Below, piece after piece: positions 26,810 to 41,910 of a DNA stretch of 43,078 nt. The number at the start of each line of letters is the position of its first letter. Positions within the stretch are counted from its first letter, which is position 1. This stretch comes from a virus, in IMG/VR virus record IMGVR_UViG_3300045988_169798, positions 1 through 43,078 of that record; one strand, 5' to 3'. A program made the position numbers and the translations under genes. The notes beneath the pieces are model-generated. The model saw only the letters and a program-made list of their open reading frames with translations, was not told the origin of the DNA and made no database searches.

Positions 26810-26810
26810 T

Positions 26811-27296: not shown

Positions 27297-28348
27297 GCCT
27301 TTCCCTCCTTCCTCTTATTTCGTAGGCTTCGCCGCGACTTGTTCACGGTAGCAATATTTTTCACCGTGTCCGAACGCACTCCGTCTACCTTAAGCCACAG
27401 CGTGTCCGGCGCCATCGGCTTGCCGCGTCCCTTTTTCAGAGTCCACGGCGTATCCGGGTCGTCCGGGAAAGGCAGATTCTTATAGCACCATATTGCACAA
27501 TCCTGCGGGGAATCGAAATGGAAGTCCTCTTTTGGAATGTATCTTTTCAGGTCATAAATGCGTCGCATGAGTGAAGGAGTGAGCCATTTCGGTAGTTCCT
27601 TGTACATGCGAAGCGATGAGCTAGTGCACGGGCAATTCACGGGTTCGTTGCCGCTGAAACGCGAGACACGGATCCACTTCGCTTCCCCGCAATTCACGCA
27701 ACGCATATGAAAATACTTATGGTGATCGCTCATGAACCTGTACTCAGGGGACGTGACTTCCCACTGCCGAAAGCGGCGTCCCATCATTTCCGGTTCCTCC
27801 CCGGTCAAGTTTTTGTTCACCGGCTTGGCCGGATGGAGGATGCGACGGTTGCGACCTTTCTTTCTTGTCTTGGTGCGTATGATAGAGATTTCACCGGGGC
27901 GAAATACTCCGTTCTCGGTCGCGAACTCCCATTCAAATACAACCGATGGGTTGAATACGTTGTAGCACCATTCGATAGCTGACATCATGCCGTCGAACTC
28001 GAAATTATCTACACCGTTCTCTTCTCGCCACGCCCAAATATTGAGGCGAATATCGTTGTAAGAGCGGCTCGGCATGAGCGTCTCGTTTGCTTTGCGATGG
28101 TAACGCAAATACGGCATATCCGGCGTGTGGTCCAGTGCCACGTCAAGGTTGCATGGGGCGATTGGCTTGGTAATGTCAGGGCGCACGAAACGCCATTTCT
28201 TGTCCTCGGGAACCTCCAAATAGGTGAAACACCACTCCAGGGCAGCATCCACGGAAGAAAAAAGGAACTCCCCGCTTGGGACGCTCGTTTGAAGCCGCTC
28301 CAACCTGTTAGCGGCTAGCCTGTACAACTTGTATGAAGGTTGCATCAT
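27293..28348 (-). CDS. Hypothetical protein with a triplicated F-x-S/G-x(3)-A-x(2)-WC motif and a Zn-ribbon-like CxxC...CPC
   Basis: GAGAGGAAA RBS before ATGATG 28348. FSSVDAALEWCFTYL, FDGMMSAIEWCYNVF, FDSPQDCAIWCYKNL. HMRCVNCGEAKW...VNCPCT. Confidence 0.55.
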   Translation of the reverse strand: MMQPSYKLYRLAANRLERLQTSVPSGEFLFSSVDAALEWCFTYLEVPEDKKWRFVRPDITKPIAPCNLDVALDHTPDMPYLRYHRKANETLMPSRSYNDIRLNIWAWREENGVDNFEFDGMMSAIEWCYNVFNPSVVFEWEFATENGVFRPGEISIIRTKTRKKGRNRRILHPAKPVNKNLTGEEPEMMGRRFRQWEVTSPEYRFMSDHHKYFHMRCVNCGEAKWIRVSRFSGNEPVNCPCTSSSLRMYKELPKWLTPSLMRRIYDLKRYIPKEDFHFDSPQDCAIWCYKNLPFPDDPDTPWTLKKGRGKPMAPDTLWLKVDGVRSDTVKNIATVNKSRRSLRNKRKEGKA

Positions 28349-28376
28349 TCGTGTTTCCTCTCTTCTCTTATTTGGT

Positions 28377-28416
28377 TGAATAGCGGGGGCAACAGTATTG
28401 TTGCCCCCGCTATTCA
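28377..28416 (-). terminator. Perfect 18-bp hairpin with a 4-nt loop inside the leftward operon
   Basis: TGAATAGCGGGGGCAACA 28377-28394 / TGTTGCCCCCGCTATTCA 28399-28416. Confidence 0.45.
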
Positions 28417-28435
28417 AATCATGCGATCGTGTGTG

Positions 28436-29026
28436 TCAGAAAACTACCGGCGATGCGGCCGCAGTATTCTTCTTGGCCTCGAAATCAATGGAAGAAATCT
28501 CTGCTCTCGGAGGCCAAAATGCGGGCTTCGGGGCGCCGTCCTCGCCGAGGATGGTGATCCCGTTCTCGTCCTGCTCGTATGCGGGGCGACCGTAATCGTC
28601 CAGACGAGGCCTGGGCTTGCTCATCCTTGTCACCAATGTTGCGTGAGCGCCTTCCAGATTCTCGCACACGCGCTTCACGGTCGCGTCAATCTTCTGTGGC
28701 GAGAGAAGATCGGCCCGCTCCCTGGCGTCAGCCGGCCACAGACCAGCGGCACTGAAGTACTTCGGAATATTGAAGTGAATGTAGGTCTTTCCGTTCTTGT
28801 TAATGGTGAAAACTGTGCGGTCGGTGAGGGCCTTTCCGGCGTCCTCGTCGTCACCGTCAATCATCCAATCGGTGACAAGCATCGGCCTGCCGCTCTTGGA
28901 CGTGGTCATTTCGGCCTTGGTGATGAAAGCGGAATGCTTTCCCGGCTTAGGCGGCTCGAAATTGCCACCGCCAGTAGCGACTTCCAGGGATGAAAGGTCG
29001 GTGCCGAAGTTGAAGCCAGTTGCCAT
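28436..29026 (-). CDS. Putative ssDNA-binding protein (DUF669-like) partnering the Sak4-like ATPase
   Basis: AGGAGC RBS before ATG 29026 (MATGFNFGTDLSS...). Position next to the AAA_24-type ATPase. OB-like beta-rich sequence. Confidence 0.5.
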   Translation of the reverse strand: MATGFNFGTDLSSLEVATGGGNFEPPKPGKHSAFITKAEMTTSKSGRPMLVTDWMIDGDDEDAGKALTDRTVFTINKNGKTYIHFNIPKYFSAAGLWPADARERADLLSPQKIDATVKRVCENLEGAHATLVTRMSKPRPRLDDYGRPAYEQDENGITILGEDGAPKPAFWPPRAEISSIDFEAKKNTAAASPVVF

Positions 29027-29069
29027 AATTATTGTGCTCCTATAAGTCGGTGGTAAAGAATTGCGGAGG

Positions 29070-29183
29070 TCAGTTCTTACCGTCGGTGGGCTTGCTGCGA
29101 AGCGCCTCCCTGACAGCGTCGGCGGCGATAGCGAGAGTCTCAGTGGAGACGCCACGGTCGGCGGTAACAGTGATCTTAGCCAT
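29070..29183 (-). CDS. Small 37-aa ORF below the track length cutoff
   Basis: GGAAGAGAG RBS, then ATG 29183: MAKITVTADRGVSTETLAIAADAVREALRSKPTDGKN, stop at 29070-29072. Fills an otherwise empty 186-nt gap. Confidence 0.35.
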   Translation of the reverse strand: MAKITVTADRGVSTETLAIAADAVREALRSKPTDGKN

Positions 29184-29212
29184 AATATGTTTCTCTCTTC
29201 CTATGTTTTTGG

Positions 29213-29953
29213 TTAGTGGCTAGTGATGTAATTGTGGATCTTGGTCATGTTTGGGTTTCCCATTGCTGGCGGGAAACCGCGCGTCTGTTGCTTTGTCACA
29301 ACGTTGGGTTTGCGAGTGTACAGGACTGGCACGGTGATTTCTTCCCCGTCCCCATTGTCCACGTTCGCCCATTCCATGTAGCCGACGAAGTTAAACAAGG
29401 CGGGGATGCGCTGCCCAGACTTCTGCCCCTCAAATGACGGGGCGATGAAGGTTTCCCCAGTGACTTCATTGCTTTCGCGTGCGGAATGCGTGATAGCAAT
29501 GAATGAAATGTCGGGGGGGTCCAGGAATACGCTGATCGCCTTCAACAGGGAATCGTACACTGCCCGCCATTTCGTCCACGTGTCATTCGACACGGCCTCA
29601 TAGTGAGACAGGATGAGTTCCTGGCACTTGTCTAGCGTGTCGAACACTACAGTTTTGTAGGGGAATTTTGCAAGATTGCGTGCAATATTGTCGCAAAGAT
29701 TGGCGCAATCAACCCACTTGTCGCAATGCACGACAGTGATGTTTGCAGGGTTCCCCCAATCCCGTACTGGGAGCGTGCCGGATTCGAAATCAACGTACAA
29801 GACGGGCGACATGTCGTCCACCTGTGACGCCGTAGCTGCGAGCGATGTTTTGCCGACGCCACTCACACCATGAATAAGCATGTTGAAATGATTATTCTGC
29901 TCCGGGTTCACGACCGTCATTCCGAGACGGGCAAGAGTGTCCTCGAAAGTCAT
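29213..29953 (-). CDS. RecA-fold AAA ATPase (AAA_24 / Sak4-like recombination protein)
   Basis: Walker A HGVSGVGKTS, Walker B VVFDTLD. ATG 29953 preferred because the GTG at 29965 overlaps the AGGAGG RBS. Confidence 0.7.
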   Translation of the reverse strand: MTFEDTLARLGMTVVNPEQNNHFNMLIHGVSGVGKTSLAATASQVDDMSPVLYVDFESGTLPVRDWGNPANITVVHCDKWVDCANLCDNIARNLAKFPYKTVVFDTLDKCQELILSHYEAVSNDTWTKWRAVYDSLLKAISVFLDPPDISFIAITHSARESNEVTGETFIAPSFEGQKSGQRIPALFNFVGYMEWANVDNGDGEEITVPVLYTRKPNVVTKQQTRGFPPAMGNPNMTKIHNYITSH

Positions 29954-29968
29954 ATTATGTTTCACCTC

Positions 29969-30718
29969 CTAACCGTTAATGTTGTAGTTTTTGAAAGCTT
30001 CTGTGTGGCGCTCATGTGAGCAGTACCAACATAGGGGTGACGATTGGAGACTGTCAACCCTATCGTCTTGTGACCTTGCTCTCTCCCAAATGTTTTGGAG
30101 TCTCTCTATGGCCGCGAGCGCAACGTCCTGCCGCCACGGAAAAGAGAACTCGCAAATACTGTCCGGCACGACCTCTACACTACAGTCCCTTGGGAGAGCA
30201 ACAATAGAACAGTGGGCTATGTCATAGCCGAGTTGTGTGAGGCCGTACCCGTAGAGCATGATTTGAATGTAGTATTTACGAAATTGTGCGCCCGCTATCG
30301 TGTTAGCGAACTGAGGCAACTCACCGTCCCATTTGATACCCTTCCGGAATGCGGAAATCTTTTTCCGTGAGAGCAGCTTCCAGTCCAGGACCGTCGCCGC
30401 CGCAATATCGAAGCGATCCACACTCCCAGAAACACTCCCATAGTCTTCAAGATCACATACCTCTACTCTCTGTTCCACTAGAACATTCGGGTCATTCTTC
30501 GTGCGCGATTCCGCGAAAGCATGAAACGCGGTGCCCAGGAAGGGCGCCAACGGTGAGCCCCCACCCTCCATATTGTGCGGGATGCCGAGGAGTTTGTCGG
30601 CAATGCATCGTTCGCAATCATCCCCGATTTCACTTACACCGATGCGCGTTTGTTTGTCACGTTCGGTTGGGGCGAAAACATTACTGACCGCTGTTGTGGC
30701 GGCCGGGCTCAAATTCAA
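29969..30718 (-). CDS. PD-(D/E)XK Cas4/RecB-like exonuclease
   Basis: N-terminal CERC and C-terminal CWYCSH cysteines, VLDWK (D-x-K) and QIMLYGY (QhxxY) motifs. TTG 30718 has an AGGAGG 10 nt upstream. The alternative ATG 30820 would overlap the upstream gene by 140 nt. Confidence 0.7.
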   Translation of the reverse strand: MNLSPAATTAVSNVFAPTERDKQTRIGVSEIGDDCERCIADKLLGIPHNMEGGGSPLAPFLGTAFHAFAESRTKNDPNVLVEQRVEVCDLEDYGSVSGSVDRFDIAAATVLDWKLLSRKKISAFRKGIKWDGELPQFANTIAGAQFRKYYIQIMLYGYGLTQLGYDIAHCSIVALPRDCSVEVVPDSICEFSFPWRQDVALAAIERLQNIWERARSQDDRVDSLQSSPLCWYCSHERHTEAFKNYNING

Positions 30719-30947
30719 ATTTCTCTCCCTCCTGAATTGCGGCGATAGCGGCGAGCCTGACGTCGCGGTGGACTTCAATGTCTCCGCTCGCAATGTCTTC
30801 GACGAAGAATAGTCTTGCATCGCCGGCCGGCATGATTTCGTAGACCGTGCCGCCCAATTCTTCTGCCCGCATTGCGGCCTGTTCGAGATTCGAGTAGACC
30901 CGATAGTCGCCTTTCTGCGACGATTCCCATACTAGGTAGACACCCAT
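30681..30947 (-). CDS. Hypothetical protein
   Basis: 88 aa, ATG start, in the operon. Confidence 0.45.
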   Translation of the reverse strand: MGVYLVWESSQKGDYRVYSNLEQAAMRAEELGGTVYEIMPAGDARLFFVEDIASGDIEVHRDVRLAAIAAIQEGEKFEFEPGRHNSGQ

Positions 30948-30994
30948 TAGTGTTTTTGCCCTCTCTTCCCTGTAATATTAGTTATGATTGCGTG

Positions 30995-31213
30995 TCATTC
31001 GATAATGGTTGCTGTGAGGCCGGCCCGCTCCTCGATCGCCGCGGAAATGACGGCCGCATAGCACTGAATCCGCCAAATGCTCTCCGATCGAATGCTGGGT
31101 ACGTGCAGTCGCATTGTCTTGACGCCGAATTTCGTTGGCCATTTCAGGATGATTGTGCGGCCGGCGATTTCGTCGACTGTGGTGCCCTGCGTAATGCGCA
31201 TAATGTTTTTCAC
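30995..31213 (-). CDS. Hypothetical protein
   Basis: 72 aa. GTG 31213 overlaps the upstream TGA (GTGA). Confidence 0.4.
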   Translation of the reverse strand: MKNIMRITQGTTVDEIAGRTIILKWPTKFGVKTMRLHVPSIRSESIWRIQCYAAVISAAIEERAGLTATIIE

Positions 31214-31530
31214 TCCCCCGCTGTGGTGAGCTCGTAAATGTCGAGGCTATTGTTGGTGGCCATGCTCCGCATGATGTTAATGTTGTCCGTCGCAACATGG
31301 ATGACATTAATGTCCGAGTGTGCATCGTCCACTGGGGTGACGATCAGGAAATTCCTGCCGACCAGCTCGCTGTCGTCGGATACGAGAATGTCCCGAATGG
31401 TGCCTGTCATGCGGCGTCGTACTAGACGAATGGCCGAGCCGCCGTGTGTTTCTGTCTTCATGGCATCTACTGTATTCGTGTGGTGGTGGTGTATGCAACC
31501 CACATGGGCGTGGTCTCTATCACATCTCAT
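31210..31530 (-). CDS. Hypothetical protein
   Basis: 106 aa. ATG 31530 overlaps the helicase TGA (ATGA). Confidence 0.45.
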   Translation of the reverse strand: MRCDRDHAHVGCIHHHHTNTVDAMKTETHGGSAIRLVRRRMTGTIRDILVSDDSELVGRNFLIVTPVDDAHSDINVIHVATDNINIMRSMATNNSLDIYELTTAGE

Positions 31531-32921
31531 ATGAGGCCGCTCTCACGCAGACGCTCATACCCCGCCGCCAACCTGGGCTCCACAGCCGTCACGTCAACAG
31601 TGCCCTCACACTGCAAAAGAAAACGATTCACCCGTTTCGTTTGCCCCTTGCGATTCAAACGAGCAGACGCCTGCAAATTCAAAATCACACTATTATCTTC
31701 GCTCAACCAAATCTCAGTGTTGCAAACGTTCTGCAGACCGTCAATCCCTTCGGCAGCGGCCGCAATGACGGCACAGAGAATCCGTGGCCCATCGGGCTCC
31801 AAAAATCGTCGCCACTCATCCCTGTAATCGCTGGACAATTCAACACTCTGATAGCCAGCATCGGCCAATCGCTCTCTCAGAGGCGCCATGAATTTACGTG
31901 AATGACACCACAGAACAACTCTCTCGTCCGGGGGCAGATCAGACAGAATATCGAGGGTGGCGTCAATCTTCGAAGATTCTCGCTCCTCGAACTCGACACT
32001 ATCGCCCACGATCCTCAACGGTCCGAGAGTGACCTGTCTGAGGCGCCCGTCGAGAACGGCGGCGGACGAGGCCACACTGGCCCCACCATCCATAACCGCC
32101 AAACGATAATCCACGAACTCCCGGTACATCCTCTTCTGTTCACACCGCATCCCACAAGCAACGCGTTGAACATTCACAGGGGGAAGATCACCAAAAACCT
32201 CACTACCCCGCATCGCAGACCAAACATCACCCACAGAATCGCGGAGGACGCCAGGAGTCTTTTCGCCACCATAAATCCTGGCATACGGGGACGCCGCAAA
32301 AGGATTGAGCTGAGAGACAAAAAACTCATCCGCAAACCGGTAGAAACTACGGTCAACACTATCCGAGTTCAGAAATTTGAGAACACCATAAATGTTGACG
32401 GGTTTATTGCCGGCGGGCGTACCCGACAAACCAAGACGATATTTCGACTTCAATGCTTTCACTGCCCGGAAAGACTGGGTGCGGTGATTCGCAATGCGGT
32501 GAACCTCGTCCACTACCACCATGTCGAACGATTTCTTCGAGAAGGAAGCATTCGGCCACTTCCCCGCGTCCACGGCCTTTCCCAGTGAAACCAACAGCTC
32601 GAAATTAATGACCCACCAACCGTCCTCGCCGTTCAGCATGCTCTCAATGTTGGCGCGCCCCGCCTTAGTAGAGCGCGACAGTACTTTCGCTTCCCGGCCG
32701 GCAATGACCTTGACGCTGGCCTGCCATGACGGAATGACGCGCTTCGGGCACACAACAATGACACGCCTGGCAGCATTAAGTTTTTGTGTGACCCAGATGG
32801 CCCCGTATGTTTTGCCGCACCCCGGTTCCCATGCCAGCAAAGCACCACCACCGCCTCGAATCGCGGCGACGGTGCGGTTGATTTCTCTTTCCTGCGCCCC
32901 AGTGGGTTGAATATTAATCAT
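31527..32921 (-). CDS. SNF2-family (SF2) helicase
   Basis: Motif I EPGCGKT, motif II DEVH (VVVDEVHRI), motif III LSGTP, motif VI QASARLNRKGQ. ATG 32921 (MINIQPTG). Confidence 0.85.
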   Translation of the reverse strand: MINIQPTGAQEREINRTVAAIRGGGGALLAWEPGCGKTYGAIWVTQKLNAARRVIVVCPKRVIPSWQASVKVIAGREAKVLSRSTKAGRANIESMLNGEDGWWVINFELLVSLGKAVDAGKWPNASFSKKSFDMVVVDEVHRIANHRTQSFRAVKALKSKYRLGLSGTPAGNKPVNIYGVLKFLNSDSVDRSFYRFADEFFVSQLNPFAASPYARIYGGEKTPGVLRDSVGDVWSAMRGSEVFGDLPPVNVQRVACGMRCEQKRMYREFVDYRLAVMDGGASVASSAAVLDGRLRQVTLGPLRIVGDSVEFEERESSKIDATLDILSDLPPDERVVLWCHSRKFMAPLRERLADAGYQSVELSSDYRDEWRRFLEPDGPRILCAVIAAAAEGIDGLQNVCNTEIWLSEDNSVILNLQASARLNRKGQTKRVNRFLLQCEGTVDVTAVEPRLAAGYERLRESGLI

Positions 32922-32982
32922 TGAAATTCGTCCAAACAATCACTAGTAGGCAAATGATAAGCATGAACACGAGACGTGTCAT
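32914..32982 (-). CDS. 22-aa hydrophobic peptide ORF overlapping the helicase start
   Basis: GGAAAGGAAAGGG RBS, then ATG 32982: MTRLVFMLIICLLVIVWTNFND. Its last codons contain the helicase ATG (AATGATTAA). Confidence 0.4.
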   Translation of the reverse strand: MTRLVFMLIICLLVIVWTNFND

Positions 32983-33006
32983 CTGCCCTTTCCTTTCCAA
33001 TATGAG

Positions 33007-33042
33007 GAACCCCGCCCCATCATTGCTAACGGGGCGGGGTTC
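33007..33042 (-). terminator. GC-rich hairpin downstream of the 33053..33265 gene
   Basis: GAACCCCGCCCC 33007-33018 pairs with GGGGCGGGGTTC 33031-33042 (12 bp). Confidence 0.5.
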
Positions 33043-33052
33043 GTCGTGGTGG

Positions 33053-33265
33053 TCAGTGGGCGATGACGTGACGCTGCACGGCGTCCCAGTAGGCGTCCTC
33101 GTCCACGTCCACCACATAGTAGGGGGTTCCAGTGGCGGAGAAGTACTGTCCGATCACGTCGTCGGCGATCGCGGCAACATCGTAGCCGTCCATCTGGTCG
33201 AGCGTGGGGATGATGTCGTACATGATGACGTCGTCCCGGGTGCTGCGGCGAGCGATAGTGTCCAT
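33053..33265 (-). CDS. Small acidic hypothetical protein in a GC-rich island
   Basis: Polypurine RBS (GAAGAGAAG) before ATG 33265. 70 aa, Asp-rich, G/C-ending codons unlike its neighbours. Confidence 0.5.
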   Translation of the reverse strand: MDTIARRSTRDDVIMYDIIPTLDQMDGYDVAAIADDVIGQYFSATGTPYYVVDVDEDAYWDAVQRHVIAH

Positions 33266-33373
33266 GACTTCTCTTCTCTCTTCTCTTCGTGTCGGTGCCA
33301 CCGTTCCTCGGTGACGACCCTAGTATAGGCAGACCGTACGCTCTCCAGCCACCCCAAAATGGCGTGACCCTGC

Positions 33374-34276
33374 TCACATCTCCAGTTGGAGGAGAGATAG
33401 CGCCTTACCCACGGCCACACCCACGTCGCCACCGCACTCCAGTAGCCTCATACAATCGAAAACAGTGTGCGCCCGGCCATCCGCGAGCGGATCATCCGCA
33501 TGATGCGAGTAGACCAGACCACTGTCCAGCATCGTCACGCCCGGAGCCGTGCCACCACCACGCGCATACCGCCACCGCCGCCCCACCGACTCGTAAGGCC
33601 AACCAAACAAACCGACAAGATCATTAAACCCATACTTTGAATTGAATTCCCCAATCACACCACCATAACCACCATCAGGCACAGAAGACAAAGAAACACC
33701 ACCATCGCCTTTCTCCTCATACCCGATATTCTCCAACCACTTATCAACATTCAAACGAGCACCATCAATGAGCCAATTGCGTACCCTCAAACCAAGACGA
33801 TGTGACGGTAGGAAAAAAGCTCGAGACGCCTCAGCGCACGACCCATCCCACTGGGCCACGGGCCCCAACACACTGAAGCACGTCCGGCTAATCGACTCGC
33901 ACTCCCCCACGGTCATGCTGCGAGTACAAGGCAGAACGACGCGGAAACGCGGAGACGGAAAAGACGACGACGCCGTCTCCCACACAATACCGGCGAGATT
34001 CGCCGCACGCATACGATCCCCGACAAAATCTTTCCGCGACCCATGATCCGCGTCCAAAACAATAGCGGACCGGGACACGAAATTCCTCTTCTGCCGCCTG
34101 CCCCCCGAAAGAATGCCAGCAAAAAAAGCTGGAGCATCATTCTTCTCACATTTCGAGGGCACCTCACACAAGGCAGCAAAATCACTCAAATTTACGTTGG
34201 TAGCACGCCACCCTGTGACGGAACGGACATTGCCCGCTACCATCGCAGGAAAACGCACACCGAAAACATCACTCAC
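33374..34276 (-). CDS. Putative primase / replication initiation protein (AEP/Prim-Pol-like; weak motif evidence)
   Basis: 300 aa. D-x-D-like IVLDADHG, RFRVVLPC, FFLPSH. GTG start overlaps the upstream stop (GTGAGTGA). Adjacent to the helicase-like gene. Confidence 0.4.
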   Translation of the reverse strand: MSDVFGVRFPAMVAGNVRSVTGWRATNVNLSDFAALCEVPSKCEKNDAPAFFAGILSGGRRQKRNFVSRSAIVLDADHGSRKDFVGDRMRAANLAGIVWETASSSFPSPRFRVVLPCTRSMTVGECESISRTCFSVLGPVAQWDGSCAEASRAFFLPSHRLGLRVRNWLIDGARLNVDKWLENIGYEEKGDGGVSLSSVPDGGYGGVIGEFNSKYGFNDLVGLFGWPYESVGRRWRYARGGGTAPGVTMLDSGLVYSHHADDPLADGRAHTVFDCMRLLECGGDVGVAVGKALSLLQLEM

Positions 34277-35840
34277 TGTACGACGGTTCCGCTATCTGAT
34301 CCCGCAAAATCGCTTCCACGAGATCATTATCCACAATAGCGCCTTCCGTCCGAAACTTCACGCCCCGACGAAGAATATACTGCCGATACTCTTCCACGCT
34401 ACGCGGGGACAGATTTTTCGCCTCCAGCACTTGGTAAAGGCGCGTCTCGGTCGGCGGATTACTACTGAAATTATCCACCATACGCGTCAAATCCGGAACA
34501 AAAACATAATCGACCATTTTCAGCGCGTCGGGAAGCCAGAAATCGGCGGCTAGGCTGAAAGCTTTCCGAACGGCGGACGATGACACGCTCATCTGCTGCT
34601 CGAAAAGAGATAGAATAGCGGCCACGCGCATAATGTGATTCCCCATGCGGTCAATGACCGCCTGTACTGCCCGCTGGAAAGGCGACTCGCGAGCCGCCTC
34701 CCTACCCCAGTCTCGCATTGTTTCCACCCAAACATTCCGGGCCGACTCAGTCACAGTCATAGTAGCCGGCGTATTAACAGGCCAAAATTCGGTGGCGCAA
34801 GTGACAGTGCCACGGAATTCGTGCTGCATCATACCCAGCATCGTGGAAATGCGCTCGGAAGCATGCTCAACAAAACCATCACCACCATGCGCATTCCGGT
34901 CGTTGTTGGTGATCCATCCGAAAGACGACGGATCAGACTGGTGATTCTCCTCGTCCAACGCGAAAAGAATGCGCGGTCCCCACCCAGTCTCGAATAGGGA
35001 CTGTGACATGTTATCGACTACGTCGCCGAGGATTCCGGTGCCGCAGAAAGCAAAAGAATGAGGAACCCTATCACTGTCAGCCCGCTTGACACCATCGTCG
35101 CCAACACGCACAGACTCGACAGTCCTACCCGAGTAGACGTCGGTCAAGAAACCGATAAGCCCGCTACGATAACCCTCACCCTGTGACGCGGAATACATAT
35201 TCTGTAGTTCGTCTACGAACATGATAGACGCCCCACCAGGCCGCTGCGCCATCCGCAAATTCAAGCCTTCGGCCGTTACGTTCGACCCGAACAAAACATT
35301 CGCCATAAGGGACCGCTCGCACGGACTATTGTCGATACTGTTCAGCAAATCCTTACGATCAGCCTCGAACTCGGCGATGCGACTATTGATATCGTCCCGC
35401 TCGACACGATACTCATCAATATCAATACGCCCACTCCTCTTTTCCAGGGATTCCAGGCGACGATACAGCATGCGGAGTGCCGAATCACACTCCCGTACGG
35501 CCGCCAAAAGCGCTGACGAATCCCACCGGAACGCCTCCACACAATCGTCAAAAAACCCGCGCACCAAAGACTGTGCCGTCGTCTTCCTCGACAAAGTAGA
35601 CGCCCCAAGACAATGCGAATACAAAGTCAACGGCACCATACTCTGCGCGCTCGCAGACAGATGAGTTCTCGCAGACAACGGGGCAGACACCATCGTCAAG
35701 AAAGTCGTCCACAAAAACCTGGGAGGCGTCTCCGGCGACTTAGACTGCAAATAGTCAATGATCCTGTCAGCGAACCAATCATAATGCACACCCCCACACG
35801 GGAACGCAAACTCGTAATCCGCAACCCTCTCAACACTCAA
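34269..35840 (-). CDS. Putative primase-associated helicase/ATPase (DUF3987-like)
   Basis: 523 aa. Walker B-like IMFVDEL, degenerate P-loop GASTLSRKT. TTG start coupled to the upstream TGA. Confidence 0.4.
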   Translation of the reverse strand: MSVERVADYEFAFPCGGVHYDWFADRIIDYLQSKSPETPPRFLWTTFLTMVSAPLSARTHLSASAQSMVPLTLYSHCLGASTLSRKTTAQSLVRGFFDDCVEAFRWDSSALLAAVRECDSALRMLYRRLESLEKRSGRIDIDEYRVERDDINSRIAEFEADRKDLLNSIDNSPCERSLMANVLFGSNVTAEGLNLRMAQRPGGASIMFVDELQNMYSASQGEGYRSGLIGFLTDVYSGRTVESVRVGDDGVKRADSDRVPHSFAFCGTGILGDVVDNMSQSLFETGWGPRILFALDEENHQSDPSSFGWITNNDRNAHGGDGFVEHASERISTMLGMMQHEFRGTVTCATEFWPVNTPATMTVTESARNVWVETMRDWGREAARESPFQRAVQAVIDRMGNHIMRVAAILSLFEQQMSVSSSAVRKAFSLAADFWLPDALKMVDYVFVPDLTRMVDNFSSNPPTETRLYQVLEAKNLSPRSVEEYRQYILRRGVKFRTEGAIVDNDLVEAILRDQIAEPSYSE

Positions 35841-36151
35841 TTGTCTTCCGCCTCCACATGGGCAAGAAAACTATTGAAAGCGTCAATAATTTCATCGCCG
35901 TCGAAAGTATAACCGACGTCGAACATGAGGCCCCAGTATCGGTTTGTTTGTTCGAAAATCGTCGCCTTGTAGCCGCGGACAGTATCCGCTTCGAAAACGA
36001 ATCTATGCCCAGGCGATGCGACGACAATGCGGATGCTATTGTTCCAGGCGCTTACTTCCAGGCCGAGCGAATCGTTCCCGCCCTTGCTGGCGTAATTCTT
36101 GCACGCCTCGGTGACATGCTTCAGGAATTCCCAGTCGAATAGCTTGATCAT
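35837..36151 (-). CDS. Hypothetical early protein
   Basis: ATG 36151 overlaps the upstream TGA. 104 aa. Confidence 0.5.
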   Translation of the reverse strand: MIKLFDWEFLKHVTEACKNYASKGGNDSLGLEVSAWNNSIRIVVASPGHRFVFEADTVRGYKATIFEQTNRYWGLMFDVGYTFDGDEIIDAFNSFLAHVEAEDN

Positions 36152-36456
36152 TTGTCCTCCCACAGTTTTGTCTTGATTTCGTCGAGCAACTCCTGAAATC
36201 CCCATCCCCCGTCTCCATTCACTGTTGTTATCGTTTCGTCCATGTCGACCTCTCGAACACTCACCGAATACTCGCCACCCACAATGGAGAGAGTGCACCC
36301 ATATTGTTTCCCGGTGACGTCCAAGTAGAGGACAGACAGATCACTGTCCAGTATGGCGTCCTCCCCAGTATCCAATAGGATGGACTTGCAGCGCGGGTCA
36401 TTGAGCATCTCCGCAATGAACTCAGTCACAATATGACGTAGCTCGTCGTCAATCAC
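36148..36456 (-). CDS. Hypothetical acidic early protein
   Basis: 102 aa, D/E-rich. GTG 36456 overlaps the upstream TGA. Confidence 0.5.
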   Translation of the reverse strand: MIDDELRHIVTEFIAEMLNDPRCKSILLDTGEDAILDSDLSVLYLDVTGKQYGCTLSIVGGEYSVSVREVDMDETITTVNGDGGWGFQELLDEIKTKLWEDK

Positions 36457-36788
36457 GATTCTCGCCCTTCCACCATGCCAGCCAGCTCCATGAAGTTATT
36501 CACAGCATGAACGATCATGCCCTGGTCAGCATCACGCTCGTCCGAGAGGACATGATTCGACAGTTGAATAACGCGAACCCGCCATTCATCATCCTTCGTG
36601 ACAACAATTCTGAAGACGGTCCTATCGACAGGATTCATAGCCCGCGCTTTGAAACGAACCACGGAAAGATCGCCGTTGTCACTGTAGCAACGCAAGCCAA
36701 CAGACCCGCAGTGAGACCACCTAACAAAATCGCCAACACAGCTAGCGAGGAAAGCGAACACCGCCCTGTCAATGCTGGAGTCACTCAT
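36453..36788 (-). CDS. Hypothetical early protein
   Basis: ATG 36788 in an ATGAGTGA overlap with the upstream stop. 111 aa. Confidence 0.5.
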   Translation of the reverse strand: MSDSSIDRAVFAFLASCVGDFVRWSHCGSVGLRCYSDNGDLSVVRFKARAMNPVDRTVFRIVVTKDDEWRVRVIQLSNHVLSDERDADQGMIVHAVNNFMELAGMVEGRES

Positions 36789-37062
36789 TGCCAGCCCCCT
36801 TGCCGCGGTTCGCCGCGACAATCAAAGCACGGTGGACGAACTCACCAACACTCTCCGGAGGAATCGCCGTGCTCTTCCGCTTAACATGCCTTGCCCTCAC
36901 CGTGTCGCCGGCGACCACGATACGGCAGGTGCTGCCGATAGTGATGATGCCGCCGTCGTAAACCTTGCGGGCAGGCGCATGCACGTTGAACTCATGGCGG
37001 CGCCCGTCATCATTCCACTCACGAACCGCCTGAGCGATAACCGTCTCGAAAACTGTACCCAT
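36781..37062 (-). CDS. Hypothetical early protein
   Basis: 93 aa. GGGAAGAGAGAG RBS upstream of ATG 37062. Confidence 0.5.
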   Translation of the reverse strand: MGTVFETVIAQAVREWNDDGRRHEFNVHAPARKVYDGGIITIGSTCRIVVAGDTVRARHVKRKSTAIPPESVGEFVHRALIVAANRGKGAGNE

Positions 37063-37124
37063 AATATACTCTCTCTTCCCAAATATTGTGATGAACGCTA
37101 CTGTCCTGTTAATTGTGGAGGGGA

Positions 37125-37613
37125 TTAAATATCGAAGCCGATCACTTCCTCCACGGGCACGCCCACCAAATCACACAAATCAACCAGCCTGTCCCGCGCA
37201 TCAGACCAGGCGCACTCCCATATCGGCGAACCCTTATCACTGTCCCGCATTTCTTCCAGGCAAAGAATGAAATCATTCACCAAGCGACTACTTTCTTCTT
37301 TCCTCTCGTGGCGCTTAATGTGCTTGCAAATCCACCTGGCCGCAACCCCGGTATTCTCACCGACAGTGACAATTTTCTGCCACCAAGCATCCGCCGTCGT
37401 CTCTTTCGAACTGAAATACCACGCCGTCGGCCTACCACTATCAAACACGTACGTTTCAACAGTACCAACCTTAGTGTCCCAAATAATGACAGTGAAATCA
37501 TCGCCGTCATAATGGGACGTGGCAGGCGGCATATTCTCCCGAATAAACCCCATCTCAATATCCCGATCAGTTACCCCTTCATCGTTGGGGCCATCATATT
37601 CAAACCATAACAT
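37125..37613 (-). CDS. Hypothetical early protein
   Basis: 162 aa, Trp/Asp-rich, ATG start. Confidence 0.5.
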   Translation of the reverse strand: MLWFEYDGPNDEGVTDRDIEMGFIRENMPPATSHYDGDDFTVIIWDTKVGTVETYVFDSGRPTAWYFSSKETTADAWWQKIVTVGENTGVAARWICKHIKRHERKEESSRLVNDFILCLEEMRDSDKGSPIWECAWSDARDRLVDLCDLVGVPVEEVIGFDI

Positions 37614-37649
37614 TATTCTCTCCTCTCGTTTCCTTGGAATTGCGGTGGG

Positions 37650-38564
37650 TCAGACGATCACACTGTCAGGAATCTCCCGGATACGAACACAGAACCATCC
37701 CCACACCTCCTCCACAGCATCCGACCGGTCAGGAGAATCCAATCTGCCAGGGATAAGCTCGACACCACCCCTACCCGCGCCCTCAACAATCTGCCCAATA
37801 ATTTCACCATTGAAATAGGCGACAATCAAAGAATCCTCCGCCATTGCAAGAGTAATACCACAAGCGTCCGCCGCTGAAGTGAGACCCTCTATGACCGAGG
37901 CACCTACAACAAGACGGTCGAACATTTCCTGCACCTTGTCCGCAATATTCTCAGTACGGACCACGCCAATATTGGTCCCCCACTGGAGAGTCTCAATATT
38001 GTCCACGGTCAACGCGACCTCGCCGGAAACGAACATCATCTCACCAATCGGTGCCGTGTAAACGTGGAACCGCATTGAATGTGTGAGCGGCCTCTTCGGC
38101 CTTACCCCAATAGCATCCCCAACGGGAGTGCGGGAATGCGAAACAATGGGATCATGGGAGATGTCATCCACGAACTTGTCCCAGATGGGGCGTTTCGACG
38201 CGTCCTCCCCAATAAGCGGGTCAATATCCAGCTCGACGCCGCTCCGCCTCATAGCAACCATCATGGTGCCAATCGCCATCCCGCCGGACGACACTGTCAG
38301 AGCCGAAAACTCGTCCTCGTCAACATAGAGACCATGCTCATCGGCCAGGGTAAGAATGCGGTCATAAATCCTCGCCGCAGCCACCATGGAAGCCAGTCCC
38401 TCATTAGCAGAACGGCGGTCGTCCGGAAAATCGGGGAAATAGGCGGGTATGAGGCGATCGGACAGAAGAATATCCTCCCCGTCCATGATCTGCGTTGTGC
38501 CGTCCAACCAAATACCCCGCGACCAATTCGTGATGTCAATTGTGAAATGCGCGGCATAAAACAT
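37650..38564 (-). CDS. Hypothetical early protein
   Basis: GAAGGGGAAGAGGA RBS before ATG 38564 (MFYAAHFTIDITNW...). 304 aa. Confidence 0.5.
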   Translation of the reverse strand: MFYAAHFTIDITNWSRGIWLDGTTQIMDGEDILLSDRLIPAYFPDFPDDRRSANEGLASMVAAARIYDRILTLADEHGLYVDEDEFSALTVSSGGMAIGTMMVAMRRSGVELDIDPLIGEDASKRPIWDKFVDDISHDPIVSHSRTPVGDAIGVRPKRPLTHSMRFHVYTAPIGEMMFVSGEVALTVDNIETLQWGTNIGVVRTENIADKVQEMFDRLVVGASVIEGLTSAADACGITLAMAEDSLIVAYFNGEIIGQIVEGAGRGGVELIPGRLDSPDRSDAVEEVWGWFCVRIREIPDSVIV

Positions 38565-38611
38565 GATGTCCTCTTCCCCTTCAGTGTTTGTGTTGCCCGA
38601 ATTGCGGGGGG

Positions 38612-38794
38612 TTACCGTACTCCCAGCGTCCCCCATAGGACCCAGATAGCCGCCACGAAACCGAGCGTCCCGACGACGGCGAGACATGACGCGGTCAGGT
38701 AGATGATGGCGGCGAAGATGATTTCGCTGCTCCGCCTCAAAGGGCGGCGGGTCGCGGCGTTGGTGCGCTTCGGCGCCGCATGCCTCATGCTCAT
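38612..38794 (-). CDS. Small membrane protein
   Basis: 60 aa. Basic N-terminus then hydrophobic IIFAAIIYLTASCLAVVGTLGFVAAIWVLW. GGAAAGAGAG RBS. Confidence 0.5.
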   Translation of the reverse strand: MSMRHAAPKRTNAATRRPLRRSSEIIFAAIIYLTASCLAVVGTLGFVAAIWVLWGTLGVR

Positions 38795-39077
38795 GATCTA
38801 CTCTCTTTCCATGGTTTGGATTGTGTTGCGGGCTGCTGTCTTGCTCCCGATGGACTTAACTCTAGGGCCCCGATGGTAGCCCTGTCCACCCTCCCAGGGT
38901 GAGACGTCCGCCACACTTCCGGGGTTTGGTTCCCGACACGCAGCCCACCATCCCAGGAACACCACGAAAGGCGGATGGGTGATGGGCTACATGTGACCGC
39001 ATCCCCCATCCCGTGCGATCGCGAGACGGAGGATGCGATACCAGTCCGAGCGGCGGGCCACCCAGTGTCACGCTGTC

Positions 39078-39515
39078 TTAGATGACGTCAATACCGTTCT
39101 CCTCCAGTACACCCCCGATCTCTTCAACATTATCCACATTCACGCCAGCAACGCTAATGCCACACTCAATCTCGCCGTCACCGTGCTCAATGACCTCGAG
39201 CTCAAGCGTGACACGGTCCAGACCGAAAATGATTTGCCTGCCCAATAGTGCAATGGGGTGCGTGTCTACGTATCCGATAGTACGGAGAATGTCGAGGGCG
39301 CGGAACATTAAGTCGGCGCCGCGTGCGACGGTGGCGAACAGTTCCGTCAAATGTTCGGGCGTCTCTCTTTTATCGGCGACGCTCATCATGTAGTTTGTGC
39401 CGTCCATGTGCTCGACCATGATCGAGAACCGGGCCGGGGTGTCGTCTGACGGCTTCGTGACCCTACGCAGGTCTATGTGTCGGACGAGCATTCCCTCGCC
39501 CACCGCGTTGCTCAT
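39078..39515 (-). CDS. Hypothetical early protein (first gene of the leftward operon)
   Basis: GAAGAGAGGA RBS before ATG 39515. 145 aa. Confidence 0.5.
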   Translation of the reverse strand: MSNAVGEGMLVRHIDLRRVTKPSDDTPARFSIMVEHMDGTNYMMSVADKRETPEHLTELFATVARGADLMFRALDILRTIGYVDTHPIALLGRQIIFGLDRVTLELEVIEHGDGEIECGISVAGVNVDNVEEIGGVLEENGIDVI

Positions 39516-39678
39516 TTGTGTTCCATCCTCTCTTCGTGCGCCGACCTTCGGTGGTGTGTCCACCGTAGAAGAGCGGTGGTGGTGCTGTCAACCCACAGCA
39601 TGTGTGTGCTGTGTCTCAGTGGGTTCCGGGGGCTCCCATGGACTTGCGCTGCCACACCATCCGTGTCATACCGTGGAC

Positions 39679-39999
39679 ATGAACACCTCGACCGCTCCGC
39701 ACATCTCACCCGTCCTCGAGCCCGAGACCATGATGGCCCTCATCCTCCGCTACGTCGAAGACAATGAGAAGGCCGCCGACCAGTACCTGCGTGCGATGCT
39801 GCGTCTCTTCATGTTCGACCTCTACCCCGACGAGGGGTTCCAGCTGGTGCGCGACTTCGCCGTCGAGTCCACGAACGACATCCGAAACTTCGAGGGTGTG
39901 GAGATGTCGAGCCGGATCAACGTCGCACTGCGGCGGCTGATCGACCGTGCCAAGGCTGACGAGGCCTTCGTGGCCGAGCTGACCGAGTTGGCCGGCTGA
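39679..39999 (+). CDS. Hypothetical protein, divergent from the early operon
   Basis: 106 aa, helical, GC-rich codons. Start uncertain (no clear RBS). Confidence 0.45.
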   Translation: MNTSTAPHISPVLEPETMMALILRYVEDNEKAADQYLRAMLRLFMFDLYPDEGFQLVRDFAVESTNDIRNFEGVEMSSRINVALRRLIDRAKADEAFVAELTELAG

Positions 40000-40121
40000 G
40001 CCGCTCACCCCACCCACACACTGCGGCAGAGGATACCCCCCCTGGGTCTTGTGCCAGCCAAGGCCCGGGGGGCATTCTTATATCAACAGAACGCCCCAAC
40101 CGACCAGGGAGGAAAGAGGAA

Positions 40122-40466
40122 ATGAACAGCACCATCCACCGTACCGAGGACCTGGCCCTCGAGACCGTCGAGCTCGGCGTCATCTACCGGGTCCACGCCC
40201 CCCGTACCGGTGACCCGTGGACCCTCTACCCGACGGGCGACGAATGCGGCGTCGAATCCATCGAGCCGCTGGACGTCCCCGACGGATGGGACGACGCCTA
40301 CGAGTACGCGATGGGCGACGTGTGCATCTGGCCTCGCCTCGCCCGCCTCGCCATGGACGCCTATCTCGCTCATGCCATCCTCGAGGTCGCTTTCGTCCCC
40401 ATCGTCGACGAGGAGGCGGATACCGACTCGCGCGCCCTGCTGTACCGCTCCGTCTGGCCCTACTGA
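40122..40466 (+). CDS. Small acidic hypothetical protein
   Basis: GGAGGAAAGAGGAA RBS. 114 aa. Very GC-rich codons (40201-40260 has 41 G+C of 60). Confidence 0.55.
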   Translation: MNSTIHRTEDLALETVELGVIYRVHAPRTGDPWTLYPTGDECGVESIEPLDVPDGWDDAYEYAMGDVCIWPRLARLAMDAYLAHAILEVAFVPIVDEEADTDSRALLYRSVWPY

Positions 40467-40486
40467 TCCGACTGCCCTGAAGCCGG

Positions 40487-40521
40487 CGAGGCCCCACCTT
40501 CAACGAGGAGGTGGGGCCTCG
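40487..40521 (+). terminator. Rho-independent terminator
   Basis: CGAGGCCCCACCT 40487-40499 pairs with AGGTGGGGCCTCG 40509-40521 (13 bp), followed by T/G-rich tcgttgtggtgtgtt. Confidence 0.65.
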
Positions 40522-40542
40522 TCGTTGTGGTGTGTTCACTGT

Positions 40543-40558
40543 GGAATGGCGGTGTGTG
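40543..40558. repeat. Left arm of a 16-bp perfect inverted repeat (GGAATGGCGGTGTGTG)
   Basis: Exact reverse complement of 41746-41761. Confidence 0.85.
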
Positions 40559-41192
40559 GTGGGGTGAGTAGTGTCGGTTCTGCACGCCGATCTCTCACCG
40601 TTTCCGTTCATCTTTCGTTTACTTTGTTCACCTCCCGTTTACTTTCTACGCATGTGGGTTGTTTGCTAACAACTGGTTTTCTAGGGTTAAAACACCCGTT
40701 TGTGTTAGTACAATGTTGGTGCGTGTCGTCACACTTTCTGCCCTTGTAGCAAGGGATCGTGTCGATGCTTTTGGTGGGATTGCAACGTTTAGTCCCTGTT
40801 GGAGTGCCTTTGTTGGCAGTGTTTGTTGTGGTGACTTTGGTCCCGTATGCTACACTCGAGTAGACGAATCGTCGAAGACGATCACGGCGTAGCCGCCGAG
40901 GAGCCCTAGCGACGCAGGCGAGCGTTACGCCGTGGGTGTTTTCGAAGAGCTCGCCACTGTGTTGGGCCCAACCTATACTCTTAAAAGAGTACTAGAATTG
41001 GACAGTGTCTAGCTGTGTTAGACGGTGTCTAATTGGGAAACAGTTGTTATAACGTAATTGGTGTTCAATGGTGAACATGACGGTCGTTAATAGTGAACAG
41101 TGTGTGGTGTAAACAACAGACACTGCGTGGTGGTAAACAACACACCCAATAAGAAGACACGCAACACAAAACACAAAGGCGCGTGTTGCGTT

Positions 41193-41225
41193 ACGTGCGT
41201 GCTCGCAAAGCTGCGCGCGCACTAC
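41193..41225 (+). repeat. 33-bp perfect direct repeat, copy 1 (acgtgcgtgctcgcaaagctgcgcgcgcactac)
   Basis: Identical to 41878-41910. Internally self-complementary (GTGCGTGC / GCGCGCAC). Confidence 0.9.
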
Positions 41226-41399
41226 GCAACACACGCCAATCCAAAACAAAAAGAAAGCGAAGAAGAGAAAGAAGAAGAAAAGGAAAGGAGAGGAGAGAAG
41301 AGAGTAGTGTTAGACGGTGGAGGCGCTCGTCTCGCTGACGCTGCGACGCGCCACCACCTAACACAAACATAAACAAAGAAAAGGAAGAGAAAAATAGCG

Positions 41400-41744
41400 G
41401 TGAGCAGAACAAGCACCAGGGAACACAAACAATTCAGAAAACAAGTACTCGCCAGAGCACAAGCCATGGGCATCACACACTGCCCAGCATGCGGGATCAA
41501 ACTCCAATACAACAACAACGGACAACGCAAACCCAACAGCGCCGAAGCAGACCACATAATCCCAGCATCACTAGGCGGAACCAACCACCCAGACAACGGC
41601 AGAGTGTTATGCGCCAAATGCAACAGCAGACGCGGCAACGGACGACACGGCAAAGGAAGAGCACGCCACTACCAGAAAAACGATAACGAACGAGACAGAC
41701 TACCAATCGCCGTCATGCCCACCGAACACTCCGACACATGGTAG
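41400..41744 (+). CDS. HNH endonuclease
   Basis: 114 aa. CPACG ... EADHIIPASLGGTNHPDNGRVLCAKCNSRRGNG (H-N-H with CxxC pairs). GTG start. Confidence 0.8.
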   Translation: MSRTSTREHKQFRKQVLARAQAMGITHCPACGIKLQYNNNGQRKPNSAEADHIIPASLGGTNHPDNGRVLCAKCNSRRGNGRHGKGRARHYQKNDNERDRLPIAVMPTEHSDTW

Positions 41745-41745
41745 G

Positions 41746-41761
41746 CACACACCGCCATTCC
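41746..41761. repeat. Right arm of the 16-bp perfect inverted repeat (CACACACCGCCATTCC)
   Basis: Exact reverse complement of 40543-40558. Begins 2 nt after the HNH stop. Confidence 0.85.
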
Positions 41762-41877
41762 GTAACAGAAGAAAAGACGAAAAGACGAAAAAACAAAGAA
41801 GGGCGGGGCGCAAAGAGAAGACAGGAGAAGACAAGAGAAACAACAGGAAGAGGAAGACACAGTGGTGTTCGGGGATA

Positions 41878-41910
41878 ACGTGCGTGCTCGCAAAGCTGCG
41901 CGCGCACTAC
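41878..41910 (+). repeat. 33-bp perfect direct repeat, copy 2
   Basis: Identical to 41193-41225. Confidence 0.9.

Follow-up and report, generated by a model that had tools for sequence, protein, structure and literature searches.

A Strong Amino/Keto Strand Skew, Independent of Coding Sense, in the Genome of a Human Oral Siphovirus

Why should one physical strand of a phage genome be rich in adenine and cytosine irrespective of the direction in which its genes are read? This question is raised by IMG/VR virus record IMGVR_UViG_3300045988_169798, analyzed here over its full length of 43,078 nucleotides (hereafter, the window). The first 55 bases recur at the end of the window, so it represents a genome of about 43.0 kb assembled as a circle; 43.1-kb contigs assembled independently from human oral metagenomes encode the same large terminase subunit (TerL) protein. 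The phage is a double-stranded, cos-type siphovirus with primase/helicase genes, and its host is most likely an actinobacterium, probably of the genus Actinomyces, Schaalia or Rothia. No close named phage was found in the INPHARED/GenBank phage collection. Strand asymmetry is usually small, at a few percent, and is interpreted as something that replication leaves behind passively. The phenomenon described here belongs to strand compositional asymmetry, as an unusual and strong variant, and seems to have been imprinted by replication, repair or recombination that treats the strands unequally and not by codon choice.

Strand Composition of the Genome

Composition and skew were measured in sliding windows, bases were counted by codon position for each gene, and third positions were followed in windows of 30 codons; gene orientations and identities were checked by homology (Pfam, PHROG). 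From 31.5 to 38.7 kb (the replication arc), the plus strand is 57–72% A+C, with a GC skew of −0.14 to −0.31 and an AT skew of up to +0.28. At 41.1–43.08 kb and 1–1.9 kb (the left arc), the plus strand is 62–83% A+C with an AT skew of up to +0.59, the values within 41.1–43.08 kb being +0.43 to +0.59. In the remaining genome, the plus strand is about 45–55% A+C. It also has G+T-rich patches at 40.5–41.05 kb (36–37% A+C), 24.5–25.5 kb (38–40%) and 17.0–17.5 kb (37–42%).

Genes on both strands share this polarity. The plus-strand genes have the following third-position A+C values: the small terminase subunit gene TerS (99–380, PHROG match), 0.96; HNH (41400–41744, Pfam HNH 2e-10), 0.91; TerL (382–1875, PHROG match), 0.85; and an outlying A+C-rich patch, the VG15/head-maturation-protease-like gene (3497–4222, Pfam VG15 5e-39), 0.77. 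The same plus-strand measure over minus-strand genes gives 0.76 for a primase-like gene (33374–34276, PHROG 256/9765), 0.71 for a DUF3987 helicase/primase-type gene (34269–35840, Pfam DUF3987 4e-17) and 0.64 for an SNF2-family helicase (31527–32939, Pfam SNF2-rel_dom 6e-22, PHROG 62 5e-81). Four hypothetical minus-strand genes with a G+T-rich sense strand show 0.61–0.71 (36453–36821, 0.63; 36781–37062; 37125–37613, 0.71; 37650–38687, 0.66). Unbiased genes in either orientation mostly have values of 0.44–0.57. The primase-like gene is the most biased of the minus-strand genes, with A, C, G and T at 6, 18, 38 and 39% of its sense third positions, and its opening codons read exactly as they had been quoted in the original prediction.

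The bias peaks at third positions and at four-fold degenerate (4-fold) sites. The plus-strand frequencies of A, C, G and T at 4-fold sites are.38,.47,.105 and.047 in the left arc and.32,.37,.24 and.07 in the replication arc, and T is depleted more than any other base in either arc. Synonymous positions carry the strongest bias, and the encoded proteins can still be assigned to their families; the sequence has therefore truly evolved, under purifying selection, and the bias is not an artefact of reads or assembly. Chemical conversion libraries and modified-base miscalls were rejected as sources, given the intact homologous open reading frames (ORFs), the third-position bias and the agreement of independent assemblies and about 76 relatives. 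A one-off hypermutation of the window genome was rejected as well, since all relatives show the same map.

The skew belongs to the physical strand. The minus strand is keto-rich (G+T) and the plus strand amino-rich (A+C) from about 31.5 kb through 43.0/0 kb to 1.9 kb, and again at 3.5–4.2 kb. The original prediction had described a plus-strand A+C excess that persists over minus-strand genes and follows the physical strand. Sliding windows, homology-checked orientations and per-gene third-position counts bear out the excess; its independence of sense is seen in that the bias spans divergent genes here and changes sign among co-oriented genes in the sister phage L271, described below. Codon-usage or translational selection predicts a bias that tracks the sense strand, and this prediction failed: TerS, TerL and HNH prefer A/C-ending codons, and the primase-like and DUF3987 genes G/T-ending ones. 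These opposite endings, together with the sign flip in L271, where TerL itself has the opposite endings, exclude codon preference, tRNA adaptation and simple transcription-coupled effects as a common cause, as had been argued from the sequence at the outset.

The skew changes in steps that coincide with gene borders, and no gradient was seen in the 30-codon windows. At 31527/31530, the 3′ end of the SNF2 gene has 73–83% third-position A+C versus 37% in gene 31210–31530; at 35840, the 5′ end of the DUF3987 gene reaches 83–93% versus 40–57% in the next gene. Within the SNF2 gene, it is the C-terminal two thirds (31527–32350) whose sense is G+T rich. Windows in TerS and TerL reach 90–100% A+C, the bias weakening at the 3′ end of TerL, and those in VG15 reach up to 100%. 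The sign switches are sharp at 31.53 kb and about 41.05–41.1 kb, and the skew is fading by 1.9–4.5 kb. Small minus-strand genes of ordinary composition are embedded in the replication arc, namely gene 32979–33377 (37–53% plus-strand third-position A+C), found across the relatives, and two overlapping ORFs at 35837–36298 and 36148–36456 (0.47 and 0.53). The four hypothetical genes at 36453–38687 are kept in relatives that differ by up to 25% in DNA.

The A+C-rich domain is interrupted at 38800–40500 by a higher-GC island (GC 58–64%) that differs among relatives and is covered in only 17–34 of about 50 of them. Its plus-strand ORFs (39397–39999 and 40122–40466) have a GC3 of 0.79–0.89, and the island is probably a variable moron or an insertion hotspot between divergent operons. 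The arcs are parted only by 38.8–41.05 kb, that is, by this island and G+T-rich non-coding DNA (40520–41050, 36–37% A+C on the plus strand), so they are better regarded as one interrupted domain of about 12 kb than as two independent cases.

Relatives and the Wider Family

Scans of viral contigs from oral metagenomes yielded about 76 close relatives, with amino acid identities of 94–98% in TerL and 90–94% in the DUF3987 protein. Projected onto window coordinates, the A+C map is common to all of them within about 3 points, despite a mean pairwise third-position divergence of 17–29% and some bins that are 21–25% different in DNA. In the pooled population, plus-strand A+C at third positions is 68% in the replication arc (n = 1731) and 50% in unbiased minus-strand genes (n = 1555).

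Beyond the species, similarity falls abruptly. TerL identities are 63% or less (Actinomyces and Schaalia prophages, among others, these two genera holding the closest TerL relatives), and the best outside relatives of the portal protein are 57–58% identical. A word-seeded search of 5.8 billion proteins detected no homologue of the DUF3987 protein below 86% identity. Its similarity to other proteins may have been lost through composition-driven amino acid drift, the gene having many G, V, W, F and C codons. For the L138 primase/helicase, no homology was detectable.

The sister phage L271 (IMGVR_UViG_2547132155_000001) has a portal protein 56% identical to that of the window and essentially all its genes on one strand. 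Its plus strand is 56–81% A+C over the 7 kb upstream of TerS and 29–50% over more than 13 kb downstream, with the switch just ahead of the terminase genes at about 7150–7400. The genes that immediately precede TerS have a third-position A+C of 0.90, whereas TerL, portal, tail genes and tape measure have 0.12–0.25 (TerL 0.19, portal 0.24, tape measure 0.25). Across shared TerL codons it is 0.90 in the window versus 0.20 in L271. The two-arm pattern is even cleaner in L271 than in the window.

In 35 non-bifidobacterial prophages with a related TerL, A+C upstream of TerL exceeded that of TerL plus the following 3 kb by a mean of 0.092, and the contrast was above 0.10 in 16 of the 35 (p = 2.6e-5), so that about half of them show a flip, though a smaller one than that of L271; the mean in 27 Bifidobacteriaceae was 0.017. 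Strong amino/keto skew blind to coding sense is thus a trait of the family, and the peculiarity of the window is that TerS and TerL lie on the A+C side. A family-wide orientation test with a GC3-based gene finder was discarded as unreliable because antisense ORFs in skewed plus-strand genes were called as minus-strand genes; six of seven such candidates had no PHROG match. The original prediction knew of no phage group with a characterised regime of this kind. Literature searches returned no paper describing one, yet the prediction is not supported on this point, as the trait itself is widespread in related Actinomycetota phages and prophages.

The patches of ordinary composition had been taken for recent imports. 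This is plausible only for the 38.8–40.5 kb island. The unbiased portal (1872–3488, plus strand, Pfam/PHROG) is no closer to its outside relatives (57–58%) than the biased TerL (60–63%), and the small unbiased genes of the replication arc are present across the species.

Polymorphism and Mutational Equilibrium

Variants were scored among the relatives of the window phage, those with a minor allele frequency of 5% or less being treated as rare. At a neutral mutational equilibrium, the opposing amino and keto fluxes are expected to stand at 1:1. In the left arc, rare variants at 4-fold sites were A/C>G/T in 55 cases and G/T>A/C in 2, and rare third-position transitions numbered 164 and 14, respectively. 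The corresponding counts were 199 and 64 in the replication arc, and 246 versus 188 and 106 versus 143 in unbiased regions. Since rare variants are mostly A/C>G/T, the skew is not a neutral mutation equilibrium and is not sustained by present-day mutation. Either it is maintained by a bias in fixation, which may be selection or biased conversion, or it is an eroding relic. The original prediction had proposed saturating C>T plus A>G change on the minus strand; the composition is what such change would leave, whereas an ongoing or saturating pressure of this kind is not supported, as rare variants run the opposite way.

The argument for selection rests on folded spectra compared between mutation classes; the ratio of major to minor alleles against frequency was rejected as proof because folding of the spectrum alone reproduces its trend. 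Amino/keto transitions in the left arc are skewed to rare frequencies (178/112/72 rare/mid/common), compared with 46/25/37 for A<->C transversions in the same genes and 434/599/456 for transitions in unbiased plus-strand genes. TerS and TerL together have the lowest third-position diversity (0.168 versus 0.21–0.29 in other full-length genes), and diversity in the replication arc is ordinary. Evidence for fixation bias is limited to the left arc.

The species is highly diverse and mosaic, with about 27% of sites polymorphic in a 400-bp sample (10600–11000) and alleles near linkage equilibrium beyond a few hundred bp. Such diversity and near linkage equilibrium imply very frequent recombination among co-infecting relatives.

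Strand-Coordinated Variant Tracts

Compared with the consensus, individual genomes have stretches of 300–400 bp where the differences are almost exclusively transitions of a single direction, for example, 24 G>A and 9 T>C versus 3 reverse changes, or 18 C>T and 9 A>G versus 1. Such single-genome tracts hold 19–33 changes one way and 0–3 the other. Pairwise runs tests gave a mean z of −4.1, and runs of at least 14 same-direction transitions numbered 362 in 150 genome pairs versus 24 after shuffling. The coordination is confined to the amino/keto axis, fades over about 150–400 bp and is absent from the GC-axis control. An earlier approach based on the most extreme genome pair per region was replaced by the runs tests and site-level permutation, as such pairs tile the genome and are largely a multiple-testing effect.

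Signed linkage disequilibrium (LD) of minor alleles was assessed by a site-level permutation test that keeps allele frequencies and local composition, with a block-permuted null. Below 20 bp, it was 0.209 for pairs of the same amino/keto type versus 0.044 for opposite types (z about 15), at 20–60 bp 0.123 versus 0.018, and at 60–150 bp 0.080 versus 0.023 (z = 13–15 over all bins). Pairs of C/T with A/G sites are as concordant as pairs of the same type, and in the longest directional runs between two genomes, A/G and C/T differences have about the same share. Every region shows the signal, unbiased ones included, and it runs in both directions. Most alleles of directional tracts are polymorphisms that genomes share, at a frequency of about 20%, and not private mutations. 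No 5′ context motif was found, the polymorphic fraction by neighbor being 0.64–0.77 for C and 0.66–0.81 for A. G<->C and A<->T transversions show a weak coupling with transitions whose amino/keto direction is the same (z = 2.7 within 100 bp), which a filter against keto mismatches predicts and deamination does not. Amino/keto-coordinated linkage among short-range variants is a previously undescribed signal.

Origin of the Skew

The amino/keto axis separates the two kinds of transition mismatch: a G.T error renders the nascent strand keto, and an A.C error renders it amino. The explanation that we favor, tentatively and with somewhat less than even confidence, is that the two mismatches, G.T and A.C, are not equivalent when the phage replicates and recombines on host machinery, with gene mosaicism superimposed. 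Actinobacteria are described in the literature as lacking MutS/L and using NucS/EndoMS instead, an enzyme that acts only on G-T, G-G and T-T and never on A.C, A.A or C.C (PMC11551767, PMC6159521). In recombineering of M. smegmatis with oligonucleotides and a phage RecT, recombination drops more than 500-fold for G-T, G-G and T-T in a NucS-dependent manner (PMC11551767), and on the leading strand, mutation-accumulation lines of C. glutamicum show a preference for C>T and A>G (PMC6159521).

On this explanation, the skew would arise by an amino-biased, strand-specific conversion, in which keto-only rejection by NucS and phage-encoded annealing would drive the strand of lagging polarity toward A+C. 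A short single strand from a co-infecting relative would anneal at the fork, possibly by means of the Sak4-type annealing protein of the phage, and would survive only if it carried A or C at every differing site, so that the lagging-polarity strand would be steadily converted. Such conversion, resembling GC-biased gene conversion (gBGC) in kind, would act on top of the excess of C>T and A>G errors that is known for the leading strand. Phage mosaicism, which brings together genes of different history, would make the pattern patchy from gene to gene, and some of it, above all TerS and TerL, may be an eroding relic. The starting points are observed, namely the independence of sense, the sharing of the skew across the species and the family, the departure from equilibrium and the short coordinated tracts; the involvement of NucS and Sak4 and the direction of fork movement we infer. 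Conversion of this kind would explain why the skew is locked to a strand, why the spectrum looks like that of selection and why rare variants are imbalanced. It would also explain the short same-direction tracts built from alleles that already existed, the equal parts played by A/G and C/T changes and the hint from transversions.

Several findings weigh against this explanation. The folded spectrum of the replication arc (263/309/274) is close to that of unbiased minus-strand genes (249/323/274) and not selection-like, and this arc could be a decaying relic. Small unbiased genes have resided there throughout the history of the species without gaining the bias, which argues against a strong process acting there now. 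TerS and TerL carry the wrong sign relative to the sister phage and most relatives. Conversion alone leaves all of this, and the gene-level patchiness, without explanation. A cluster of iterons at 42972–57, across the joined ends, lies inside the A+C-rich domain, and the sign of the skew does not change there. The transversion test is weak (z = 1.4 at 30 bp), and the strand-coordinated LD could come from old bursts later split by recombination. Verified minus-strand exonuclease genes in Bifidobacterium prophages have a mildly A+C-rich sense strand, and weak skews in the wider family may follow sense.

A serious alternative, especially for the replication arc, is that the skew was left by a past strand-asymmetric regime on the minus strand of an ancestor, through replication-linked exposure of single strands or G.T errors, and that it now decays neutrally, mosaic replacement having produced the patches. 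This moves the idea of the original prediction into the past and is possible, though not likely, for the pattern as a whole. In its favor, the per-site A/C>G/T rate at left-arc 4-fold sites equals that of unbiased genes (0.156 versus 0.14) and the reverse flux is tiny; the ratio of major to minor alleles fits a constant flux ratio once folding is allowed for; the spectrum and diversity of the replication arc are normal; and the unbiased inserts do not drift toward the bias. Moreover, TerL differs from the family consensus by 16 replacements in the amino direction (10 of them V>I) versus 4 in the keto direction, which indicates that the shift is derived on the window lineage. The regime would nevertheless have had to bring TerS and TerL near saturation and to have ended no more than about three coalescent depths ago, by extrapolation. 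The excess of rare keto variants and the reduced diversity of the left arc are unexpected under neutrality, the bias is kept in bins 21–25% different in DNA between relatives, and strand-coordinated tracts still segregate everywhere. The same left-arc spectrum and diversity point to constraint on synonymous sites and thereby to a further reading, on which selection at the nucleotide level favors strands or transcripts that do not self-pair ({A,C}, {A,G}, {G,U}), or avoids T on the plus strand near the packaging/replication region, with a polarity that is arbitrary in each lineage. A<->C transversions make up about half of the common 4-fold polymorphisms of the left arc (27/53 versus 9/153 in unbiased genes), the 41.1–43 kb region has T-less A/C and A/G tracts with conserved-looking GC hairpins, and orthologues in different phages have opposite polarity. 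We consider such selection unlikely, because it gives no reason for a short-range amino/keto coupling that extends over the genome, unbiased regions included, and no selection signal exists in the replication arc. Adjacent arms of opposite polarity in the relatives would pair if co-transcribed, and the steps at gene borders and the unbiased small genes within the same operon are hard to fit with selection on transcripts.

It is quite unlikely, in our estimate, that the shared polarity is a coincidence of mosaicism, with an inverted replication module of G+T-rich sense happening to adjoin a packaging module of A+C-rich sense. The steps do fall on gene borders, genes of both A+C and G+T sense exist in relatives, and two arcs, which is effectively all there are, would agree in polarity by chance about half of the time; window TerL is only 34% identical to that of L271 though the portals are 56% identical, which means that the packaging module was exchanged. 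Yet this merely moves the question to the donors, whose skew also ignores sense, and no donor was found, the DUF3987 protein having no relative below 86% identity. The arcs are contiguous once the variable island is removed, and the strand-coordinated LD is left without explanation. Enzymatic hypermutation in episodes, by a host or phage DNA deaminase acting on exposed single strands (APOBEC-like C>U plus deamination of adenine), would fit C>T changes that cluster with A>G changes on the same strand within about 150 bp or less and the single-genome tracts of 19–33 changes one way versus 0–3. It is very improbable in view of the missing 5′ context motif, the equal effect on A and C, tract alleles that are shared polymorphisms and not private bursts, and rare variants that oppose the skew; the only deaminase found is a dCTP (nucleotide-pool) deaminase. 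Hydrolytic deamination predicts C>T far above A>G and, on single strands, a gradient with the time spent single-stranded. The mitochondrial-type single-strand deamination of the original prediction does not agree with the equal contributions of A/G and C/T, the abrupt steps at gene borders and the lack of a gradient. A simple two-origin exposure model of the mitochondrial DNA (mtDNA) type, reasoned from the third-position profiles, does not reproduce the plateau and sharp edges, and end-resection models give the wrong sign at one end.

Genome Organization and Non-Coding Sequences

The genes are clustered in blocks of opposite orientation. A plus-strand block (99–19621) comprises TerS, TerL, portal, VG15/protease, capsid (4877–5809), tape measure (9081–13643) and tail genes, and is followed by a minus-strand block (19698–23325), plus-strand lysis genes (23406–25412) and the minus-strand early and replication genes (25643–38797), assigned by Pfam/PHROG. 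The last of these blocks contains the gene of the Sak4-like single-strand annealing protein (29213–29965, minus strand, PHROG 124 1e-31). No integrase was found in the gene map of the window (Pfam and PHROG), and tRNA and Rfam scans of the window gave no match. The minus-strand block at 19698–23325 includes the dCTP deaminase (20416–20934, Pfam DCD 2.6e-32) and, adjoining it, a DUF3310/nucleotide-kinase-like protein (21386–22390, minus strand). The two could shift nucleotide pools (dCTP down, dUTP/dTTP up), which would favor G.T mispairs; alternatively, they could serve a thymidine-modification pathway.

The variable island ends near 40490–40525 at a sequence that resembles a strong hairpin plus a T run. 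At its other end, 38800–39080 (minus strand) is GC-rich and apparently non-coding, with many short inverted repeats, and lies upstream of the first small gene of the leftward operon; despite the structured look, no tRNA, tmRNA or Rfam family matched there. Non-coding DNA spans 40.5–41.4 kb, and about 1.4 kb more lies between HNH and TerS.

The T-poor right end of the domain (41100–43078, plus strand) holds the HNH gene, about 1.4 kb of non-coding DNA in which GC hairpins break up A/C-only and A/G-only tracts, and the iteron cluster. Within the non-coding sequence of 41.1–43.0 kb, T-free, C-poor purine tracts and A/C tracts (41240–41300, 41760–41850 and 41930–42020) alternate with GC-rich inverted repeats (about 41180–41235, 41310–41360 and 41865–41910), and the hairpins retain their G and T. 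The arrangement resembles an unstructured RNA or single strand broken by defined hairpins; no Rfam match was found for it.

The iteron TGTGGA(A/T)AAC occurs in six direct copies within about 110 bp, all on the plus strand (42972–43078/5–57, the ends overlapping), with nine matches when the duplicated end is counted versus 0.16 expected. Its reverse complement, TTATCCACA, is what we take to be the classical DnaA-box consensus. The cluster could be a replication origin or a set of terminase/TerS binding repeats. Just upstream, an A+T-richer block of degenerate repeats at 42440–42620 (GATGAACATGAT, TGATCA and similar) could be a DNA-unwinding element.

A further motif, CCGC(A/C)ATTC, occurs 16 times versus 1.3 expected, for example, at 41752, 42040 and 42378 on the plus strand and at 37637, 38599 and 40544 on the minus strand. 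Several copies lie just past stop codons, where intergenic leaders of either orientation carry the motif on their sense strand and a long, purine-rich ribosome-binding stretch comes after it. The motif may serve as a promoter, in processing or in regulation.

Significance and Comparison with Known Systems

The skew of this very abundant human oral phage and its relatives is near saturation at synonymous sites, alters amino acids and has opposite signs in orthologues of related phages. In regions of this kind, host prediction from codon usage and gene calling will go wrong. If the keto-only specificity of NucS is the cause, host repair would directly sculpt phage composition and codon usage, and the amino/keto skew could reveal fork direction, recombination intensity and the type of host repair from metagenomic phage genomes. 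In its furthest-reaching form, which we hold to be doubtful, amino-biased conversion would act in highly recombining phage populations of actinobacterial hosts and create strand-locked composition domains strong enough to alter protein sequences; it would then be a new evolutionary force, an analogue of gBGC on another axis that is bound to one strand.

The leading strand of bacterial chromosomes is G+T rich through replication-associated asymmetry. The chromosomal pattern, that of C. glutamicum included (PMC6159521), shares with the phage the amino/keto axis, the independence of gene orientation and the concentration at synonymous sites, and the two arms of L271 with their sharp sign switch are a further likeness. 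However, the magnitude here is far larger, third-position A+C being up to 0.96 or down to 0.12–0.25. The window phage is also patchy by gene and has no complementary G+T arm of similar strength, and its polymorphism flux is unbalanced, unlike what a mutational equilibrium requires.

Vertebrate mtDNA is alike in its G+T and A+C strands and in the C>T-type and A>G-type changes implied on one of them. It differs in that the phage has steps at gene borders without a gradient, equal contributions of A/G and C/T and no current excess of the implied substitutions, and in that the element here is a double-stranded cos-type siphovirus with primase/helicase genes. The clusters produced by APOBEC in kataegis and retroviral G>A hypermutation likewise lie on the same strand over short distances, whereas the tracts described here involve both C and A, have no context motif and consist of alleles shared in the population.

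The left arc behaves as expected under gBGC, in which a transmission bias in heteroduplexes holds composition off equilibrium and produces spectra that mimic selection. Here, however, the axis is amino/keto and not GC/AT, in line with the null GC-axis control, and the bias would be specific to a physical strand. We know of no description of a physical-strand-specific amino/keto conversion bias. The NucS/EndoMS specificity established by RecT recombineering (PMC11551767) lies exactly along this axis; it was demonstrated with synthetic oligonucleotides in mycobacteria, and its involvement in the phage is what we infer. To our knowledge, the specificity of NucS has had no prior link to the composition of phage genomes.

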